Of a DNA stretch of 64,000 nucleotides, positions 14,749-60,070 are shown piece after piece (position 1 is the stretch's first letter; every line of letters starts with the position of its first letter). The position numbers were made by a program, and so were the translations under genes. The stretch lies in assembly GCF_054482595.1 (NCBI RefSeq), contig NZ_CM137008.1; one strand, written 5' to 3'. The notes beneath the pieces are model-generated. The model worked only from the letters and a program-made list of their open reading frames with translations. It made no database searches and was not told the DNA's origin.

Positions 14749-15190
14749 AGTAAGTACAAAACCTATTCGTTGTATGACAAATGTCACAATTCGATCATGG
14801 ATAAATCGGGGCAAAAATGCAATGTTGTAGCACTATTTATCTCATATTATTTGAGGGTAATAACCTCACATTATCCCTGAATTAAAAGTGGTAATAATAA
14901 AACATTATTTAAGAAATATCGCATGTGGAGACACTATATTAAATATTGTCAACCTAAAGAAACTCCTAAAAACCATATTGAATGACACTTAATATAATTC
15001 TTAAAAATAGCCAATTACCGAATTGTTATCTTGCCTGCTATTCCGTTAGCTGTAACACTTCCTCCTGCATTATTGGAAAGCCAATATTCAATTACCATAA
15101 TGTCACCTTATATTCGGAAGTTAATTTCCGTAATAACCCTTTCTCATCAACGACTGCATGCTGAGAGGGTGTGAAAAATTAAACTAAATC

Positions 15191-15229
15191 AGTGTATTGG
15201 TAGCTAAAAAGCCAGGGGCGGTAGCGTGT
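15191..15229 (+). promoter_or_regulatory. JUMPStart element with ops (RfaH recruitment) site in the wza leader
   Basis: cagtg...ggtagc...agccaggggcggtagcgtg; ops core GGCGGTAGCGTG at 15217-15228. Confidence 0.8.
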
Positions 15230-29755: not shown

Positions 29756-29844
29756 ATGAATGCGAAACCGAGATGTAAATAACGACAAAAACAAAATTGG
29801 CCGTTTCGGTCAGGGCCAACTATTGCCTGAAAAAGGGTAACGAC

Positions 29845-34187: not shown

Positions 34188-34358
34188 AAACGCCTTATCC
34201 ATCCTACGGTTCTGTGCTCGGGTCTTGTAGGCCTGATAAGACGCGTCAGCGTCGCATCAGGCACTGAATGCCGGATGCGGCGTGAACGCCTTATCCGGCC
34301 TACGGTTCTGTGCTCGGGTCTTGTAGGCCTGATAAGACGTGCCAGCGTCGCATCAGGC
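34188..34358. repeat. BIME: two near-identical ~72-bp REP-containing units in tandem
   Basis: Unit at 34191-34262 and unit at 34287-34358 differ at only a few positions. Confidence 0.75.
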
Positions 34359-45228: not shown

Positions 45229-46244
45229 AAGTTGATGCAGTAATCTTATGGGTAGATGGTAATGATCCAAAATGGCAGGAAGAATACAATAAATATTGTA
45301 AGCCGGCCTCTCGAATTGAGAATGGTGTACAAAGATATAGAGATTGGGATACACTACGATATGTAATTCGTGGAATAGAATATAACCTTCCTTGGATTGA
45401 CAAAATACATTTTGTGACATGTGGTCAAAAGCCAAGTTGGATGGTTGGATATCATCCAAAACTCAATTTTGTACATCATAACGATATTTTTGAGAATGAT
45501 ACATTTTTACCCACATTTAATTCAAGTGCAATAGAGTTAAATCTGTCAAGGATAAAGGGATTAAGTGAGAGGTTTATATATTTTAATGATGATATGCTTG
45601 TGCTTAAAAACACTCCTCTTCAGAGGTTTTTTGTAAATGATTTACCGGTGGATTTTTTAATTGAAGCTTTCCCACGGCGTGGGTTATTGTATGAAAAAAT
45701 ACGTTCCAACTCAACTTGGGTTTCAATGATAAATAATTGCACTTCGCTCATAAATAGAGTGTATCACAAGAATAAATATATACAGGATAATCGTAATTTA
45801 TATTATAACATGAACTATGGACGACATGTCATTGCTAATGTACTGGCGTCCCCTTTTAAGCAGTTTTTGGCTTTTAAACACTATCATCATCCTCAAGCAT
45901 ATCTTAAAAAGACATTACAATCCGTTGAGCGTGAGTTCCCAGTGGAGTTTAACTTAACATGCAAATCTAGATTCCGAGAACATGATAATATCTCACAGGC
46001 GTTGTTTAGATATTACCAATTGGTAACTGGTAGTTTTTATCCGTGCTATTATAATGATCATGCCTGTGTTAATGTAGTAAATAAAAAATCTGCAAGCCAG
46101 TGTATTGAAGCTCTTCATCAAAAACGATTTGTGTGTATAAATGATGAGATTAATGACGACTTAGATGATAGTTCAATTTTAATAAATGATATAATTAAAG
46201 AGTTGGATTTGATTCTTCCAAATAAATCAAGTTTTGAGATCTAA
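45225..46244 (+). CDS. Stealth-family hexose-1-phosphate transferase (glycosyl-phosphotransferase)
   Basis: 339-aa ORF; Stealth CR1-like DAVILWVDGNDPKW, CR2-like TLRYVIRGIEYNLPWIDKIHFVT, CR3-like YFNDDM. Confidence 0.75.
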   Translation: MKVDAVILWVDGNDPKWQEEYNKYCKPASRIENGVQRYRDWDTLRYVIRGIEYNLPWIDKIHFVTCGQKPSWMVGYHPKLNFVHHNDIFENDTFLPTFNSSAIELNLSRIKGLSERFIYFNDDMLVLKNTPLQRFFVNDLPVDFLIEAFPRRGLLYEKIRSNSTWVSMINNCTSLINRVYHKNKYIQDNRNLYYNMNYGRHVIANVLASPFKQFLAFKHYHHPQAYLKKTLQSVEREFPVEFNLTCKSRFREHDNISQALFRYYQLVTGSFYPCYYNDHACVNVVNKKSASQCIEALHQKRFVCINDEINDDLDDSSILINDIIKELDLILPNKSSFEI

Positions 46245-46250
46245 ATTAAT

Positions 46251-47069
46251 ATGAATTCGTTTGATGAGTTTAATGTGCTACTATCTCTTTATAAAAATGA
46301 GAGCCCCGATAATCTGGATGCGTGTTTTCAAAGCATAAGCACTCAATCTTTGAAAAGATTTAAAATAATACTTGTCATAGATGGTCCTATTTCTTCTGAG
46401 TTAAATGAGGTTGTCGGAAAGTGGAAGTCACTATTACCTATTAAAATTATCAATCTCGAACGTAATGTTGGCTTAGGTAATGCTTTAAATATAGGTTTGA
46501 AATATTGCAGTTGTGATTATGTGTTTCGTATGGATACAGATGATATTTGTCATCCGGATAGGTTTTCCATACAATTTAGTTATCTGAGGAAACACCCCGA
46601 TATTGATTTGCTTGGTGGACAGATTGTAGAATTCCATGAATGCATAGAGGAGCCTAACGGTATGCGGTTAGTACCTTCTAAATATGAGGAAATTCTTCAG
46701 TATTGTAAACTTAAAAACCCATTTAATCATATGACAGTTGTGTTTAAAAGAGAGAGTGTACTTAAGGTCGGTGGATATAAACATCATTTATATATGGAGG
46801 ATTATAATCTTTGGCTTCGTATGATATCAATTGGTTGCAAAGTGGAAAATTTAGATGATGTGATTGTTTTTGCCCGAACAGACGTGAATTCATTAATGAG
46901 ACGTAGAGGGTGGCAATATGTTAAAAGTGAATGGAAATTAGCACTGTTAAAAATAAAGTTAAGAATAAATAATCCTATTGTTTCTTTATCTGTTTTTATC
47001 CTCCGATCTATACCTCGATTATTACCTATTATGTTGATTCGTAGAATTTATGCCCACAACCGCAAGTGA
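46251..47069 (+). CDS. Glycosyltransferase family 2
   Basis: 272-aa ORF; FNVLLSLYKNE ... VIDGP ... MDTDD motifs. Confidence 0.8.
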   Translation: MNSFDEFNVLLSLYKNESPDNLDACFQSISTQSLKRFKIILVIDGPISSELNEVVGKWKSLLPIKIINLERNVGLGNALNIGLKYCSCDYVFRMDTDDICHPDRFSIQFSYLRKHPDIDLLGGQIVEFHECIEEPNGMRLVPSKYEEILQYCKLKNPFNHMTVVFKRESVLKVGGYKHHLYMEDYNLWLRMISIGCKVENLDDVIVFARTDVNSLMRRRGWQYVKSEWKLALLKIKLRINNPIVSLSVFILRSIPRLLPIMLIRRIYAHNRK

Positions 47070-47217
47070 ATTTTTTTAAGTCATATTGAGTAATTGAGTA
47101 ATAGTTTTCCTATGTAATCAAAATTAACTATCAGTTTTATTATTAGTTGGGTAATATCTCTCTATATCTCAACCAGTGCAGTCATTGCATGGTGAACACC
47201 CCTGACAGGAGTAAACA

Positions 47218-48624
47218 ATGTCAAAGCAACAGATTGGCGTCGTCGGTATGGCAGTGATGGGGCGCAACCTTGCGCTCAACATCGAAAGCCGTGGTTATAC
47301 CGTCTCTATTTTCAACCGTTCCCGTGAAAAGACGGAAGAAGTGATTGCCGAAAATCCAGGCAAAAAACTGGTTCCTTACTATACGGTGAAAGAGTTTGTT
47401 GAATCTCTGGAAACGCCTCGTCGCATCCTGTTAATGGTGAAAGCAGGTGCAGGCACGGATGCTGCTATTGATTCCCTCAAGCCATACCTCGATAAAGGTG
47501 ACATCATCATTGATGGTGGTAATACTTTCTTCCAGGACACCATTCGTCGTAACCGTGAACTTTCTGCCGAAGGCTTTAACTTCATTGGTACCGGTGTTTC
47601 CGGTGGTGAAGAAGGCGCGCTGAAAGGGCCTTCCATTATGCCTGGTGGCCAGAAAGAAGCCTATGAACTGGTTGCACCGATCCTCACCAAAATCGCCGCA
47701 GTGGCTGAAGACGGTGAGCCATGCGTTACCTATATTGGTGCCGATGGAGCAGGTCACTATGTGAAGATGGTTCACAACGGTATTGAATACGGCGATATGC
47801 AGCTGATTGCTGAAGCCTATTCTCTGCTTAAAGGTGGCCTGAATCTTTCCAACGAAGAACTGGCGCAGACGTTTACCGAGTGGAATAACGGTGAACTGAG
47901 CAGCTACCTGATCGACATCACCAAAGATATCTTCACCAAAAAAGATGAAGACGGTAACTACCTGGTTGATGTGATTCTGGATGAAGCAGCAAACAAAGGT
48001 ACGGGCAAATGGACCAGCCAGAGTGCGCTGGATCTCGGCGAACCGTTGTCGCTGATTACCGAGTCTGTGTTTGCTCGTTATATCTCTTCTCTGAAAGATC
48101 AGCGTGTTGCCGCATCTAAAGTTCTCTCTGGCCCGCAAGCACAGCCAGCAGGCGACAAGGCTGAGTTCATCGAAAAAGTTCGTCGTGCGCTGTATCTGGG
48201 CAAAATCGTTTCTTACGCCCAGGGCTTCTCTCAGCTGCGTGCTGCGTCTGAAGAGTACAACTGGGATCTGAACTACGGCGAAATCGCGAAGATTTTCCGT
48301 GCTGGTTGCATCATCCGTGCGCAGTTCCTGCAGAAAATCACCGATGCATACGCCGAAAATCCGCAGATCGCTAACCTGCTGCTGGCTCCGTACTTCAAGC
48401 AAATTGCCGATGACTACCAGCAGGCGCTGCGCGATGTCGTCGCTTATGCGGTACAGAACGGTATCCCGGTTCCGACCTTCGCCGCTGCGGTTGCCTATTA
48501 TGACAGCTACCGCGCCGCAGTTCTGCCTGCGAACCTGATCCAGGCACAGCGTGACTATTTCGGTGCGCATACTTATAAGCGCATTGATAAAGAAGGTGTG
48601 TTCCATACCGAATGGTTGGATTAA
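47218..48624 (+). CDS. gnd: 6-phosphogluconate dehydrogenase (decarboxylating)
   Basis: 468-aa [22 protein letters not shown]-binding motif. Confidence 0.95.
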
Positions 48625-48650
48625 TCTGATCTAACCAACAATAAATTTAG

Positions 48651-48678
48651 GCCCGGCGTATATTGCGCCGGGCTTTTT
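48651..48678 (+). terminator. GC-rich hairpin plus T-run after gnd (gnd terminator or IS200 left-end terminator)
   Basis: gcccggcg / cgccgggc stem with 7-nt loop, then TTTTT. Confidence 0.6.
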
Positions 48679-48821
48679 GTGCACAGAAAACCCCCAGCTA
48701 GGCTGGGGGTTCCGGAAAGCTATCAGCTTTGAGCCAGTTATTAAAACCCCTTTTGATTTGTTAAAACACCTTGCGGTCTGGCAACTGCAAGTGTCAAACA
48801 AGAAATCAAAAGGGGGTCCCA

Positions 48822-49280
48822 ATGGGGAACGAAAAGAGCTTAGCGCACACCCGATGGAACTGTAAATATCACATAGTTTTTGCGCCAAAATACTGAAGAC
48901 AAGTGTTCTACAGAGAGAAACGTAGAGCAATAGGCAGTATTTTGAGAAAGCTGTGTGAGTGGAAAAGCGTACGGATTCTTGAAACTGAATGCTGTGCAGA
49001 TCATATCCATATGCTTGTGGAGAGCCCGCCCAAAATGAGCGTATCCGGCTTTATGGGATATCTGAAAGGGAAAAGCAGTCTGATGCTTTACGAGCAGTTT
49101 GATGATTTGAAATTCAAATACAGGAACAGGGAGTTCTGGTGCAGAGGGTACTACGTCGATACGGTGGGTAAGAACACGGCGAAGATACAGGATTACATAA
49201 AGCACCAGCTTGAAGAGGATAAAATGGGAGAGCAGTTATCGATTCCCTATCCGGGCAGCCCGTTTACGGGCCGTAAGTAA
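48822..49280 (+). pseudogene. tnpA: IS200 tnpA (Y1 HuH transposase) interrupted by an in-frame TGA at codon 25
   Basis: MGNEKSLAHTRWNCKYHIVFAPKY, TGA at 48894-48896, then the same frame continues through HIHMLVE (HuH motif) to the stop at 49280. Confidence 0.75.
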
Positions 49281-49361
49281 CGAAGTTGGATGCAAATGTC
49301 AGATCGTGTGCGCCTGTTAGGGCGCGGCTGGTAAGAGAGCCTTATAGGCGCATTTGAAAAA

Positions 49362-49392
49362 CCTCCGGCTATGCCGGAGGATATTTATTTTT
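49362..49392 (+). terminator. Hairpin plus T-run at the IS200-like right end
   Basis: cctccggc / gccggagg stem with 3-nt loop, followed by atatttattttt. Confidence 0.55.
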
Positions 49393-49573
49393 GCCAATTA
49401 TCTTATAGACTAAATTTCACTGCTTAATATTAACTTAATAAATATCAGCTATTCTTATAAAGAAAATCTGAATTGTTTTTCGTTGCGTTGACCATCTGAC
49501 AACGTAGCGTTAAAACTTTTAGCTCTTATCAGGATGCTAAAAACATCATGATTCACAGTTAAGTTAATTCTGA

Positions 49574-50749
<1,176 letters not shown>

Positions 50750-50759
50750 CATCCTGTTA

Positions 50760-50790
50760 TCAGGGCGATTTTCGCCCTGATTCTCTTATG
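50760..50790 (+). terminator. Putative terminator hairpin after ugd
   Basis: atcagggcg / cgccctgat stem with 5-nt loop, then a U-rich tail. Confidence 0.5.
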
Positions 50791-50895
50791 TTCCCTTTGT
50801 AATAATTCATTATTTTTATCATTTATCCTATAGCATTCATGGCGATTATCGCTAAACTATGGCGACTTAAAATTATTTCGTCCGTTAGGGTAATG

Positions 50896-51876
50896 ATGAG
50901 AGTAGAAAATAATAATGTTTCTGGGCAAAACCATGACCAGGAACAGATTGATTTGATTGATTTACTGGTGCAGTTGTGGCGTGGCAAGATGACAATTATC
51001 ATCTCTGTCATTGTTGCTATTGCCCTGGCTATTGGGTATTTGGCGGTAGCGAAGGAGAAATGGACGTCAACAGCAATTATCACTCAGCCTGACGTGGGGC
51101 AAATTGCTGGCTATAACAATGCCATGAATGTTATCTATGGTCAGGCTGCACCTAAAGTGCCGGATTTACAGGAGGCGTTAATTGGTCGCTTCAGTTCTGC
51201 CTTCTCTGCATTAGCAGAAACGCTGGATAATCAGAAAGAACCAGAAAAACTTACCATCGAACCTTCTGTAAAGAACCAGCAATTACCATTGACTGTTTCT
51301 TATGTTGGGCAAACTGCAGAGGACGCACAAATGAAATTGGCCCAATACATTCAGCAAGTTGATGATAAAGTAAATCAAGAGCTAGAAAAGGATCTCAAGG
51401 ACAACCTTGCTTTGGGACGGAAAAACTTGCAGGACTCTTTAAGAACTCAGGAAGTGGTTGCGCAGGAGCAGAAAGATCTGCGTATCCGTCAGATTCAGGA
51501 AGCGTTGCAGTATGCGAATCAGGCGCAGGTGACAAAACCGCAGATTCAACAGACTGGCGAAGATATCACACAAGATACGTTGTTCCTTTTGGGGAGCGAA
51601 GCGCTGGAGTCGATGATTAAGCATGAGGCAACTCGTCCGTTGGTGTTTTCGCCAGACTACTATCAGACTCGTCAAAACCTGCTGGATATCGAAAACTTAA
51701 AGGTTGACGATCTTGATATTCATGCTTACCGTTATGTGATGAAACCGACGTTACCTATTCGTCGCGATAGCCCGAAAAAGGCAATTACCTTGATTCTGGC
51801 GGTGCTGCTGGGCGGCATGGTTGGCGCGGGGATTGTGTTGGGGCGTAATGCTCTGCGTAATTACAACTCGAAGTAA
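50896..51876 (+). CDS. wzzB: O-antigen chain-length determinant (polysaccharide co-polymerase 1)
   Basis: 326 aa from ATG at 50896 (MRVENNNVSG); two TM segments flanking a periplasmic coiled-coil region. Confidence 0.9.
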   Translation: MRVENNNVSGQNHDQEQIDLIDLLVQLWRGKMTIIISVIVAIALAIGYLAVAKEKWTSTAIITQPDVGQIAGYNNAMNVIYGQAAPKVPDLQEALIGRFSSAFSALAETLDNQKEPEKLTIEPSVKNQQLPLTVSYVGQTAEDAQMKLAQYIQQVDDKVNQELEKDLKDNLALGRKNLQDSLRTQEVVAQEQKDLRIRQIQEALQYANQAQVTKPQIQQTGEDITQDTLFLLGSEALESMIKHEATRPLVFSPDYYQTRQNLLDIENLKVDDLDIHAYRYVMKPTLPIRRDSPKKAITLILAVLLGGMVGAGIVLGRNALRNYNSK

Positions 51877-51898
51877 TCTTTTCGGTTTTAAAGAAAAT

Positions 51899-51931
51899 GG
51901 GCAGGGTGGTGACACCTTGCCCGTTTTTTTT
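51899..51931. terminator. Bidirectional rho-independent terminator between convergent wzzB and hisI
   Basis: gggcaggg / ccttgccc stem followed by TTTTTTTT on the plus strand; U-rich on the minus strand as well. Confidence 0.65.
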
Positions 51932-51972
51932 GCCGGATGCGACGACAATATCGCATCCGCTTACCCCGCAAC

Positions 51973-52577
51973 TCACTGATGCCGTTTACGCAGGTTCTCA
52001 ATCACCGTCGTTAAGTCCAGATCCTGATCCTGCAATAGCACCAGCAGGTGATACATCAAATCAGATGCCTCGTTGGTCAGCTCAAAGCGGTCATGTACTG
52101 TCGCTGCCAGTGCGGTTTCCACGCCTTCTTCGCCCACTTTCTGCGCAATGCGCTTGGTGCCGCTGGCATACAGTTTGGCGGTATAGGAGGTTTCCGGGTC
52201 GGCAGATTTACGTTCGGCGAGCAGTTGTTCCAGTTGATACAGGAACAGCCACTGGTGAGCGGTGTCGCCGAAGCAGCTGCTGGTGCCTTTGTGGCAGGTC
52301 GGGCCGATGGGATTCGCCAGCAACAGTAACGTGTCGTTGTCGCAGTCCGGCGTAATATTTACTACGTTGAGGAAATTGCCCGACGTTTCGCCTTTGGTCC
52401 ACAGTCGCTGTTTAGTGCGCGAGAAGAAGGTGACTTTGCCGCTTTCGATGGTTTTGTCCAGGGCTTGCGGGTTCATATAGCCCAGCATTAACACTTCACC
52501 GGATACCGCGTGTTGCACAATCACCGGCATAAGTCCGTCGGTTTTTTCCCAGTCCAGTTCGCGACGTTGTTGTTCTG

Positions 52578-52584
<7 letters not shown>
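51973..52584 (-). CDS. hisI: Bifunctional phosphoribosyl-AMP cyclohydrolase / phosphoribosyl-ATP pyrophosphatase
   Basis: 203-aa ORF matching HisIE. Confidence 0.95.
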
Positions 52585-54662
<2,078 letters not shown>

Positions 54663-54663
<1 letters not shown>

Positions 54664-55729
54664 TACAGCACTCCTTTCGACGAGGGCAGGGTATCGCCTT
54701 CCACGCGGATGGCCTGGCGCAGGGTGCGACCAAAAGCTTTGAACAGGCTCTCTACACGGTGATGATCGTTTTTACCTTTGGTTTTCAGGTGCAACGTCAC
54801 GCCCATGGTGTAAGAGAGCGAACGGAAGAAGTGCTCGATCATTTCAGTGCTGAGATCGCCCACGCGCTGGTAGGTAAATTCAGCTTTATATTCCAGGTGC
54901 GGGCGACCAGAGATATCCAGTGCGCAGCGGGCAAGGCATTCGTCCATCGGCAGCACAAAACCAAAGCGGCAAATACCGCGTTTGTCGCCAAGAGCAATTT
55001 TTAACGCTTCGCCCAGCGCCAGGCCGGTATCTTCGACGGTGTGGTGATCGTCGATATAGAGGTCGCCTTTGACGTTGATTTCCATCCGGAAACCGCCGTG
55101 GGTGGCGATCTGATCCAGCATGTGATCAAAGAAGCCAACGCCGGTGTTAATCTTGCTGCCACCTTCGCGATCCAGCCACACCTGGACGTCAATTTGCGTC
55201 TCTTTGGTGTTGCGCACCACATGGGCGTAACGGTCTCGTTTAGTGAGCTGCTCGCCAATCATTGGCCAGTTCAGGGTTTCGCGGTCATAGCGTAAACCAT
55301 TAATGCCCATGTTTTCCGCCAGTTGAATGTCGGTCGCGCGATCGCCAATCACATAACTGTTGGCACGGTCCATCGCTTGCTCAGCCAGATAACGCTCTAC
55401 CAGTTTTACTTTCGGCTTACGGCAGTCGCACTCATCGGCGGGCAGGTGCGGACAAATCAGCACTTCATCAAACTGCACGCCTTGCGAGGTGAAGATCTGC
55501 ATCATCAGGTTGTGCGGGCCATCAAAATCCGCCTGCGGGAAACTTTGTGTTCCCAGACCATCCTGATTAGTGATCATCACCAGCTTGTAGCCCGCTTTTT
55601 GCAGCTTCAGTAGCTCCGGGATCACGCCCGGTTCAAAGGCGAGTTTGTCAAAACGGTCCACCTGAAAATCACTCGGCGGTTCGCTAATCAGGGTTCCATC
55701 GCGATCGATAAAAAGATACTTCTGACTCA

Positions 55730-55730
<1 letters not shown>
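54663..55730 (-). CDS. hisB: Bifunctional histidinol-phosphatase / imidazoleglycerol-phosphate dehydratase
   Basis: 355 aa from [14 protein letters not shown] (HAD motif). Confidence 0.95.
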
Positions 55731-58101
<2,371 letters not shown>

Positions 58102-58106
58102 GGCGA

Positions 58107-59006
58107 TCACTCCATCATCTTCTCAATCGGCAGGACCAGGATTGAACTGGCACCCAGCGCTTTCAGTTTTTCCATGGTTTCCCAGAACAGGGTTTCGCTA
58201 CTGACCATGTGCATCGCTACGCGCTGTTGATCACCCGCCAGCGGTAGAATAGTTGGGCGTTCGGCACCTGGCAGCAGGGCGATGACTTCATCCAGACGTT
58301 CGGTCGGTGCGTGCATCATGATGTATTTTGATTCGCGCGCCTGGATCACACCCTGAATACGGGTCAGCAGTTTGTCGATCAGTTGCTGTTTGGATTCTTC
58401 CATTTCGCCATCGCGCTGGATCAGGCAGGCTTTCGAGCGGTAGATAACTTCGACTTCGCGCAGGCCGTTAGCTTCCAGCGTGGCACCGGTGGAAACCAGA
58501 TCGCAAATCGCATCCGCCAGTCCGGCACGCGGGGCGACTTCAACAGAACCGTTCAGTAAGCAGGATTTAAAAGAGATGCCTTTCTGGTCGAGATAACGCT
58601 TGAGCAGGTGAGGATAAGAGGTGGCGATACGTTTACCGTTTAAGGAGAGCGGGCCGTCCCAGGCTTCATCAACTGGCGTTGCCAGCGAAAGACGGCAGCC
58701 GCCGAAATCCAGACGACGCAGGGTAAAGTAGCGTGGATCTTCACCCTGGGCGCGGCGGTTAAGCAGCTCTTCTTCCAGCACGTTTTCGCCGATAATCCCA
58801 AGGTCTACCACGCCATCCATTACCAGACCGGGAATGTCGTCGTCACGCACGCGCAGAATATCAATCGGCATGTTTTCTGCCATCGCGATCAGGCGCTGGG
58901 TGTGAAGATTGATTTTAATGCCACAGCGCGCCAGCAATTCGCGTGAGTCATCACTTAAACGGCCGGATTTCTGCATAGCTATGCGTAAACGAGTGTTGTC
59001 TGTCAT
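58107..59006 (-). CDS. hisG: ATP phosphoribosyltransferase
   Basis: 299 aa from [18 protein letters not shown]. Confidence 0.95.
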
Positions 59007-59061
59007 TTTCTTATTCCTCTTTAAACCTGTCTGAACCGTTATCAACCGCGCAATAAAAAAG

Positions 59062-59094
59062 CCCCCGGAAGGTGATCTTCCGGGGGCTTTCTCA
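59062..59094 (-). terminator. his attenuator terminator hairpin
   Basis: Minus strand reads agcccccggaag-atcac-cttccgggggct followed by UUUUUAUU, between hisL and hisG. Confidence 0.85.
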
Positions 59095-59151
59095 TGCGTT
59101 CATGCACCACTGGAAGATCTGAATGTCTTCCAGCACACATCGCCTGAAAGA

Positions 59152-59202
59152 CTAGTCAGGATGATGGTGATGATGGTGGTGTTTAAATTGAACGCGTGTC
59201 AT
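59152..59202 (-). CDS. hisL: his operon leader peptide
   Basis: Minus strand encodes MTRVQFKHHHHHHHPD-stop, with seven consecutive His codons. Confidence 0.9.
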   Translation of the reverse strand: MTRVQFKHHHHHHHPD

Positions 59203-59452
59203 AAAAGTCTCTGTGAATGTTTATTCAACTGATGTCTTTTAACCTAAACCACTTTCACGTTAGAAAGCAAGGGCTTTTTTATATATTTTATGGCGATGGA
59301 TTTGTTTAATGAATGAGCGGGGAAAGGAGGGCGCTAAGAGGACTGTCCTCTAACCTGACGGTACCCAAAATAGCGAAGCCTGGATTTTTCGTCTCACTGA
59401 CAATGTCTTGATCTACAAACTAATTAATAAATAGTGAATCAACGTCTATCAT

Positions 59453-59470
59453 TGTACAATAAGCTGTACA
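59453..59470. promoter_or_regulatory. yefM-yoeB operator (paired TGTACA motifs)
   Basis: tgtacaataagctgtaca, 15 nt upstream of the yefM ATG. Confidence 0.65.
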
Positions 59471-59485
59471 AAAGAGGAGATTGAC

Positions 59486-59737
59486 ATGCGTACAATTAGT
59501 TACAGCGAAGCGCGTCAGAATTTGTCGGCAACAATGATGAAAGCCGTTGAAGATCATGCCCCGATCCTTATTACTCGTCAGAATGGAGAGGCTTGTGTTC
59601 TGATGTCACTCGAAGAATACAACTCGCTGGAAGAGACGGCTTATCTACTGCGTTCCCCCGCTAACGCCCGGAGATTGATGGACTCAATCGATAGCCTGAA
59701 AGCAGGCAAAGGAACGGAAAAGGACATTATTGAGTGA
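59486..59737 (+). CDS. yefM: Antitoxin YefM (Phd family)
   Basis: 83-aa [18 protein letters not shown]; 4-bp overlap with yoeB. Confidence 0.95.
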
Positions 59738-59988
59738 AACTAATCTGGTCTGAGGAGTCATGGGATGATTATCTGTACTGGCAGGAAACAGATAAGCGAA
59801 TTGTTAAAAAGATCAATGAACTTATCAAAGATACCCGCAGAACACCATTTGAAGGTAAGGGGAAGCCAGAACCCCTGAAGCATAATTTGTCAGGCTTCTG
59901 GTCCCGACGCATTACAGAGGAGCACCGTCTGGTATACGCGGTTACTGACGATTCACTGCTCATTGCAGCATGTCGTTATCATTATTGA
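59734..59988 (+). CDS. yoeB: Toxin YoeB (RelE-family ribosome-dependent mRNA interferase)
   Basis: 84-aa ORF matching YoeB. Confidence 0.95.
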
Positions 59989-60070
59989 ACAGATTCATTC
60001 ATAGAATGAATTGTCAGTTTTGATACGCTAGCGTAGCCTTATAGATCTAAGGTGTATCAGGAGATAACGG

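Follow-up and report, generated by a model that had tools for sequence, protein, structure and literature searches.

The stretch of DNA analyzed here, 64 kb in length and referred to below as the window, is a segment of the E. coli chromosome comprising the yeg/mdt region, wca, galF, an O160-family O-antigen cluster, gnd, ugd, wzzB, the his operon, and plaP. The first gene of the his operon, hisG, was identified on the minus strand by its match to NCBIfam TIGR00070 (193 bits, with a cut-off of 75.75 bits for this family), and downstream of it hisD, C, B, H, A, F, and IE follow on the same strand as contiguous intact open reading frames (ORFs) to position 51973. All eight his genes, from 59006 to 51973, lie on the strand of the leader described here, and yefM-yoeB is located upstream in divergent orientation, at 59486-59988 on the plus strand. 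The features of the leader region, in the direction of transcription, are as follows.

59270..59241, minus strand: probable his promoter (hisLp), as read from the sequence
59202..59152, minus strand: hisL leader peptide ORF, 16 codons, MTRVQFKHHHHHHHPD plus a TAG stop, from translation
59181..59161, minus strand: seven tandem His codons (CAC CAC CAT CAT CAC CAT CAT), the regulatory (sensing) codons, from translation
59169..59134, minus strand: helix A:B, the first RF00514 consensus hairpin; −11.7 kcal/mol when folded alone
59152..59125, minus strand: helix B:C, GUCUUUCAG with CUGGAAGAC; −10.8 kcal/mol when folded alone
59133..59110, minus strand: helix C:D, CUGGAAGA, an 8-nt loop, and UCUUCCAG; about −12.7 kcal/mol; inverted repeat I3, complementary at 8 of 8 positions; the second RF00514 hairpin
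59132, minus strand: putative RNA polymerase pause site, a U lying 11 nt past the pause hairpin, with G-10 at 59141 and G+1 at 59131
59119..59074, minus strand: helix D:E, the antiterminator, GAUCUUCC... with ...GGAAGAUC; −16.7 kcal/mol; inverted repeat I2
59093..59052, minus strand: helix E:F (59093..59055) and U-run, the attenuator (an intrinsic terminator); inverted repeat I1; the third RF00514 consensus hairpin
59006..58107, minus strand: hisG (ATP phosphoribosyltransferase), the first structural gene under the attenuator

The surroundings of the his operon were also compared with other genomes. The O-antigen cluster between galF and gnd (window positions 40000-51900) belongs to the O160 family, wzx and wzy being annotated as O160 in the best-matching genomes, and at least 80% of the interval 40000-59300 was covered by only 7 genomes, with a top identity of 98.2%. 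The O111 strain E2863 was 96-100% identical to the window over approximately 57000-64000 (the 5′ half of hisD, hisG, hisL, and yefM to plaP), and only 80-85% identical over 52000-57000 (the 3′ half of hisD to hisIE). The latter value prompted the idea of a foreign his operon in the window, which was ruled out by 94-96% identity to other Escherichia (the range found for the window his allele against E. albertii and E. whittamii) and 98.2% identity to O160-type E. coli. Since the allele of the window is the ordinary Escherichia one, the divergent allele is that of E2863, with a recombination junction inside hisD near the O-antigen locus.

A search of the window against Rfam also returned several RNA elements away from the his leader. 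STnc490, an Hfq-binding RNA, was matched at 48689-48812 on the plus strand (144 bits), between gnd and ugd; the match adjoins an IS200/IS605 transposase pseudogene annotated in the best-matching genome and probably represents the 5′ end of one copy of IS200. Two JUMPstart RNA elements were found on the plus strand, at 15190-15228 (57 bits) and 40845-40883 (51 bits), of which the first presumably heads the colanic acid (wza) cluster, and the second, just past galF, heads the O-antigen cluster. The other matches above the gathering score were STnc240 at 61916-61990 on the plus strand, just before yoeI/plaP, an algC RNA motif at 29791-29840 on the plus strand, and naRNA4, a REP-like element, at 34230-34300 on the minus strand.

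The leader peptide, the terminator, and the identity of the element

An earlier note on this DNA, made from the letters alone, had reported a leader peptide with seven His codons, followed by a GC-rich hairpin and a U-run. Translation of 59202..59152 on the minus strand returned MTRVQFKHHHHHHHPD* exactly, and an identical sequence is annotated in E. coli as "hisL: his operon leader peptide" (WP_001364200.1). The run of seven CAY codons occurs once in the 64-kb window when both strands are counted, and it appeared in none of 100 dinucleotide-preserving shuffles of the window. A second short ORF on the same strand, encoding 32 amino acids at 59042..59140 and overlapping the terminator, was rejected as a chance ORF, as it falls inside conserved RNA helices and has no support.

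The hairpin and U-run were likewise found after the leader peptide, at 59090..59052 on the minus strand. The hairpin itself, AAAGCCCCCGGAAG / AUCAC / CUUCCGGGGGCUUU, occupies 59090..59058 and is followed by UUUAUU up to 59052. Its G+C core is formed by GCCCCCGGAAG and CUUCCGGGGGC, with AUCAC as the loop; the U-run reads UUUUUUAUU at 59060..59052. The stem comprises 14 bp (17 when G-U and A-U extensions are included) around a 5-nt loop; PMC10989985 likewise gives a stem of 14 bp, a loop of 5 nt, and a run of U. An inverted-repeat search recovered the same element as I1, with 19-nt arms separated by 5 nt; when folded alone, helix E:F reached −30.8 kcal/mol. The end of the U-run lies 46 nt from the hisG start codon (59006). 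A generic terminator scan of the window did not list the E:F hairpin, which reflects a limitation of the rules of the scan and not of the sequence.

To what family the region belongs was evident from Rfam. The His_leader model (RF00514) matched 59176..59053 on the minus strand with 131.6 bits (E = 1.4e-21; gathering score 49), covering model positions 1-126 of 126. Moreover, 501 nt around the leader were 100% identical to many E. coli chromosomes, in which hisL (his operon leader peptide), the "His leader region," yefM, and hisG are annotated under the match. The 153-nt leader was 100% identical to that of K-12 derivatives (an O16:H48 strain and TOP10), and it was matched in 5423 of 5426 complete E. 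coli genomes, with a median of one copy per genome and at least 99% identity in 5085 of the 5423 matching genomes; the match was absent from 3 of the 5426. In the same genome collection, one genome carried the leader in six places, and in one place it was located on a plasmid. The interval that the earlier note had given for the element, 59050-59202, is accurate, being bounded by the start codon and the end of the U-run.

We also considered whether a chance short ORF might simply sit beside an ordinary terminator, the two being uncoupled in regulation. Beyond the general frequency of short ORFs, nothing speaks for such an arrangement. The absence of the seven CAY codons from all 100 shuffles argues against it, as do the E value of the RF00514 match, the placement exactly upstream of hisG, and the retention of the element both within E. 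coli (5423 of 5426 genomes) and more widely in Enterobacteriaceae. In addition, yefM-yoeB is divergent, so that no convergent upstream gene needs a terminator at this position. We therefore put the likelihood of a chance arrangement at next to nil. By contrast, we hold with a probability of about 0.97 that the histidine biosynthesis operon of E. coli has its hisL leader and attenuator at 59050-59202 on the minus strand, and that this attenuator of transcription is of the ribosome-mediated type. Judged by its sequence, the element is the E. coli one itself, neither a relative nor a variant.

Alternative helices of the leader RNA

The earlier note had suggested folding the leader RNA into alternative terminator and antiterminator structures. 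This was carried out, and five overlapping helices, A:B, B:C, C:D, D:E, and E:F, corresponding to those of the classical model, were obtained, together with both the terminator and the antiterminator form. The fold of the 171-nt leader was far more stable than expected by chance, at −68.4 kcal/mol vs. −41.1 ± 3.5 kcal/mol for shuffles (z = −7.9). The last His codons contain segment A. Helix B:C overlaps A:B and also C:D, and the inner segments each have two mutually exclusive partners; helix D:E (59119..59074) overlaps segment E, the 5′ arm of the terminator (59093..59077), and so sequesters that arm. The inverted-repeat search independently recovered three of these helices, namely E:F (I1), D:E (I2), and C:D (I3).

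When the RNA was folded freely, the combination of A:B, C:D, and E:F was obtained at every length; this is the terminator form and coincides with the RF00514 consensus. A stalled ribosome was represented by masking its footprint, the fourth His codon being placed in the A site. With the His codons masked, the complete leader always adopted the terminator at equilibrium, and equilibrium folding was abandoned as a test of antitermination in favor of stepwise folding of a lengthening transcript. In the masked nascent RNA, B:C was the minimum-energy fold when the 3′ end lay between 59126 and 59114, C:D was slightly favored over B:C when it lay between 59108 and 59078, and B:C together with D:E was the minimum-energy fold when it reached 59072, where E has emerged and F has not yet; this combination is the antiterminator form in the classical model. 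Since the terminator was returned at equilibrium despite the mask, and C:D was favored midway, antitermination would depend on co-transcriptional kinetics. The attenuation decision is thus predicted to be kinetic and co-transcriptional, in line with the literature.

Helix A:B contains, in its inner part, a 5-bp hairpin (CCUGA/UCAGG, 59160..59143 on the minus strand), which is the his pause hairpin. Position 59132, with the flanking G residues listed above, is presumably the exact site of the pause. The sequence around 59132 conforms to the consensus for pausing, G-10 Y-1 G+1, and fits what PMC9291695 describes for the well-studied hisL pause, which depends on a hairpin.

Conservation in Enterobacteriaceae and further proposed roles

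Related leaders were collected by a pattern scan that required HHHHHHHPD*, with one genome per species, and was restricted to close relatives. It yielded 76 loci, essentially all from genera of Enterobacteriaceae or from unclassified MAGs; the genera included Escherichia, Salmonella, Citrobacter, Enterobacter, the Klebsiella-related Raoultella, Kluyvera, Kosakonia, Leclercia, and Atlantibacter. In an alignment of 59 distinct Enterobacteriaceae leaders, segments A to F were invariant or nearly so, and variation was found in the N-terminal codons of the peptide, the C:D loop, the spacer between D and E, the terminator loop, and the sequence past the U-run. Standard pairs made up 99.4% of the cells of the terminator form and 97.8% of those of the antiterminator form; when the partners were slid by 1-3 columns, the proportion fell to 37-57%. 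For individual helices, the paired cells across the 59 relatives amounted to 100% for A:B, 100% for B:C, and 99% for D:E.

The single frequent change within a stem was an A to G in segment C, present in 17 of the 59 leaders. Its partner is a U in B:C as well as in C:D, so that neither alternative helix is lost. No compensatory double substitution was found at any pair in these 59 close-relative leaders, in which only one-sided changes from A-U to G-U occurred; the stems being invariant in the sample, no pair had changed on both sides. The covariation test is accordingly uninformative rather than negative. In terms of sequence comparison, then, the pattern is one of strong conservation, consistent with a double pairing constraint and showing no covariation.

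The residues ahead of the His run varied among relatives (MTRVQFK, MISVQFK, MKSVQFK, MCVQFK, and others). In Pseudocitrobacter (three loci, L009, L012, and L073), the peptide is one codon shorter and starts with ATG TGC GTT CAA... (MCVQFKHHHHHHHPD), with the RNA helices unchanged; since the start differs while the helices do not, the residues before the His run appear free to vary. A different kind of change was observed in Trabulsiella odontotermitis: in strain TbOT1.10 (L068:1183-1359), a 9-nt tandem duplication (CACCATCAT) gives hisL ten consecutive His codons, compared with seven in strain 01 (L057).

The invariance of the stems bears on another conceivable role, in which the terminated leader transcript of ~180 nt would act in trans, either as a small RNA or via the HisL peptide. 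Strong purifying selection acting on an RNA that works in trans would produce the same picture, and the leader RNA left by termination is both discrete and stable (PMC10989985). However, the invariance is fully accounted for by the two pairing partners of each segment, the peptide residues before the His run vary freely, and none of our results indicated a target or a role in trans. We consider such a function highly improbable.

A protein-dependent switch in addition to attenuation was proposed in 2023, when it was suggested that DnaA binds "rDnaA boxes" in the leader RNA and thereby strengthens attenuation (PMC10989985). The proposal draws on immunoprecipitation of RNA and on reporter assays, both in E. 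coli, and on four 9-mers that resemble DnaA boxes, with two mismatches apiece, within or close to the leader (PMC10989985). Since the leader of the window equals that of K-12, whatever applies to K-12 would apply here too. Against this, 9-mers within two mismatches of TTWTNCACA numbered 1162 in the window vs. 1127 ± 31 in shuffles, or about one per 55 bp, so that four in roughly 250 nt is the chance expectation; as sequence evidence for a protein-dependent switch, the boxes were therefore set aside. The wording of the authors themselves is that DnaA "might" bind (PMC10989985), and the classical model needs no protein factor, which would leave DnaA at best as a modulating layer on ribosome-mediated attenuation. 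A leader that is additionally a switch of this type seems to us unlikely. Taken in general terms, that a protein factor, DnaA for instance, also reads the leader, or that the leader acts in trans as a small RNA, strikes us as distinctly improbable; if true, the extreme invariance of the stems in Enterobacteriaceae would be due to more than the constraint of pairing with two partners. The reading preferred here remains ribosome-mediated attenuation.

The mechanism of attenuation and what it means for the operon

The probable promoter, hisLp, was located by a −35-like TTGCTT at 59270..59265 and a −10-like TAGGTT at 59246..59241, the pair being preceded by an A/T-rich stretch. These hexamers are the ones that we take to be those of the his promoter. 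A consensus promoter scan did not list the site, which is explained by TAGGTT matching TATAAT at only three of six positions. Having missed both the his promoter and the attenuator, the generic promoter/terminator scan was discarded as uninformative here. From the position of the hexamers, we infer that transcription starts near 59234, and the leader RNA length of 180 nt given in PMC10989985 is consistent with the position assigned to hisLp.

The attenuator of the window may work as follows. Transcription would begin ~30 nt upstream of hisL, and formation of the A:B pause hairpin would cause RNA polymerase to pause while a ribosome loads on hisL, so that translation becomes coupled to transcription. 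When charged tRNA-His is plentiful, the ribosome would pass the seven His codons and reach the TAG stop, where its footprint would extend well into segment B and block B:C. With B:C blocked, C:D would form, E would be free to pair with F, and E:F with the U-run would terminate transcription before hisG. If no ribosome is loaded, A:B, C:D, and E:F would form, and termination would result as well. When charged tRNA-His is scarce, the ribosome would stall on the His codons and cover A, which would allow B:C and then D:E to form; D:E would prevent the terminator, and the polymerase would read through into hisGDCBHAFI. The mechanism of attenuation has been established experimentally in E. coli, and the in vivo response, a rise of read-through into the operon when charged tRNA-His is limiting, has been established for the identical E. 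coli/Salmonella sequence (both summarized in PMC10989985 and PMC9291695). Pausing, too, has been established for the identical sequence.

The hisL of E. coli K-12 and Salmonella (RF00514) has the same peptide, MTRVQFKHHHHHHHPD, the three consensus hairpins, and the U-run, and in K-12 it occupies the same position upstream of hisG and divergent from yefM-yoeB; no difference from K-12 was found within 59050-59202. Outside Escherichia, his leaders depart from this sequence only in the loops of the terminator and of C:D, the spacer between D and E, and the U-run; the U-run reads UUUUUUUU in most of these genera and UUUUUUAUU in the window and the other Escherichia. With trpL, pheL, thrL, leuL, and ilvL, the his leader shares a common logic: a short leader ORF contains cognate codons in tandem, the RNA can form alternative helices that overlap, an intrinsic terminator lies ahead of the first structural gene, and a pause that depends on a hairpin, putative in the window, couples translation to transcription (for the shared logic, PMC9291695, PMC1183508). 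These five are nevertheless separate families, with unrelated sequences and other regulatory codons. Among all these attenuators, the his leader has the longest uninterrupted codon run (seven), and it forms a chain of five overlapping helices, compared with four segments in trp.

The earlier note had called the element a textbook case of attenuation, intact in this DNA, and as far as its sequence can tell, this description is apt, the defining features all being present and correctly placed. The word "intact" is justified by what was observed at the locus, namely the ORF with its His codons, the position upstream of hisG, the terminator, the mutually exclusive pairings with their energies, the RF00514 match, and the identity to the annotated and experimentally studied hisL. 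The his attenuator of the window is already known, and no new biology is involved. Attenuation is the operon-specific control of the his operon, for which no dedicated repressor is known. The region can be labeled hisL/his attenuator with confidence, its significance being one of annotation only, and the his operon of this strain may be regarded, from its sequence features, as normally regulated.
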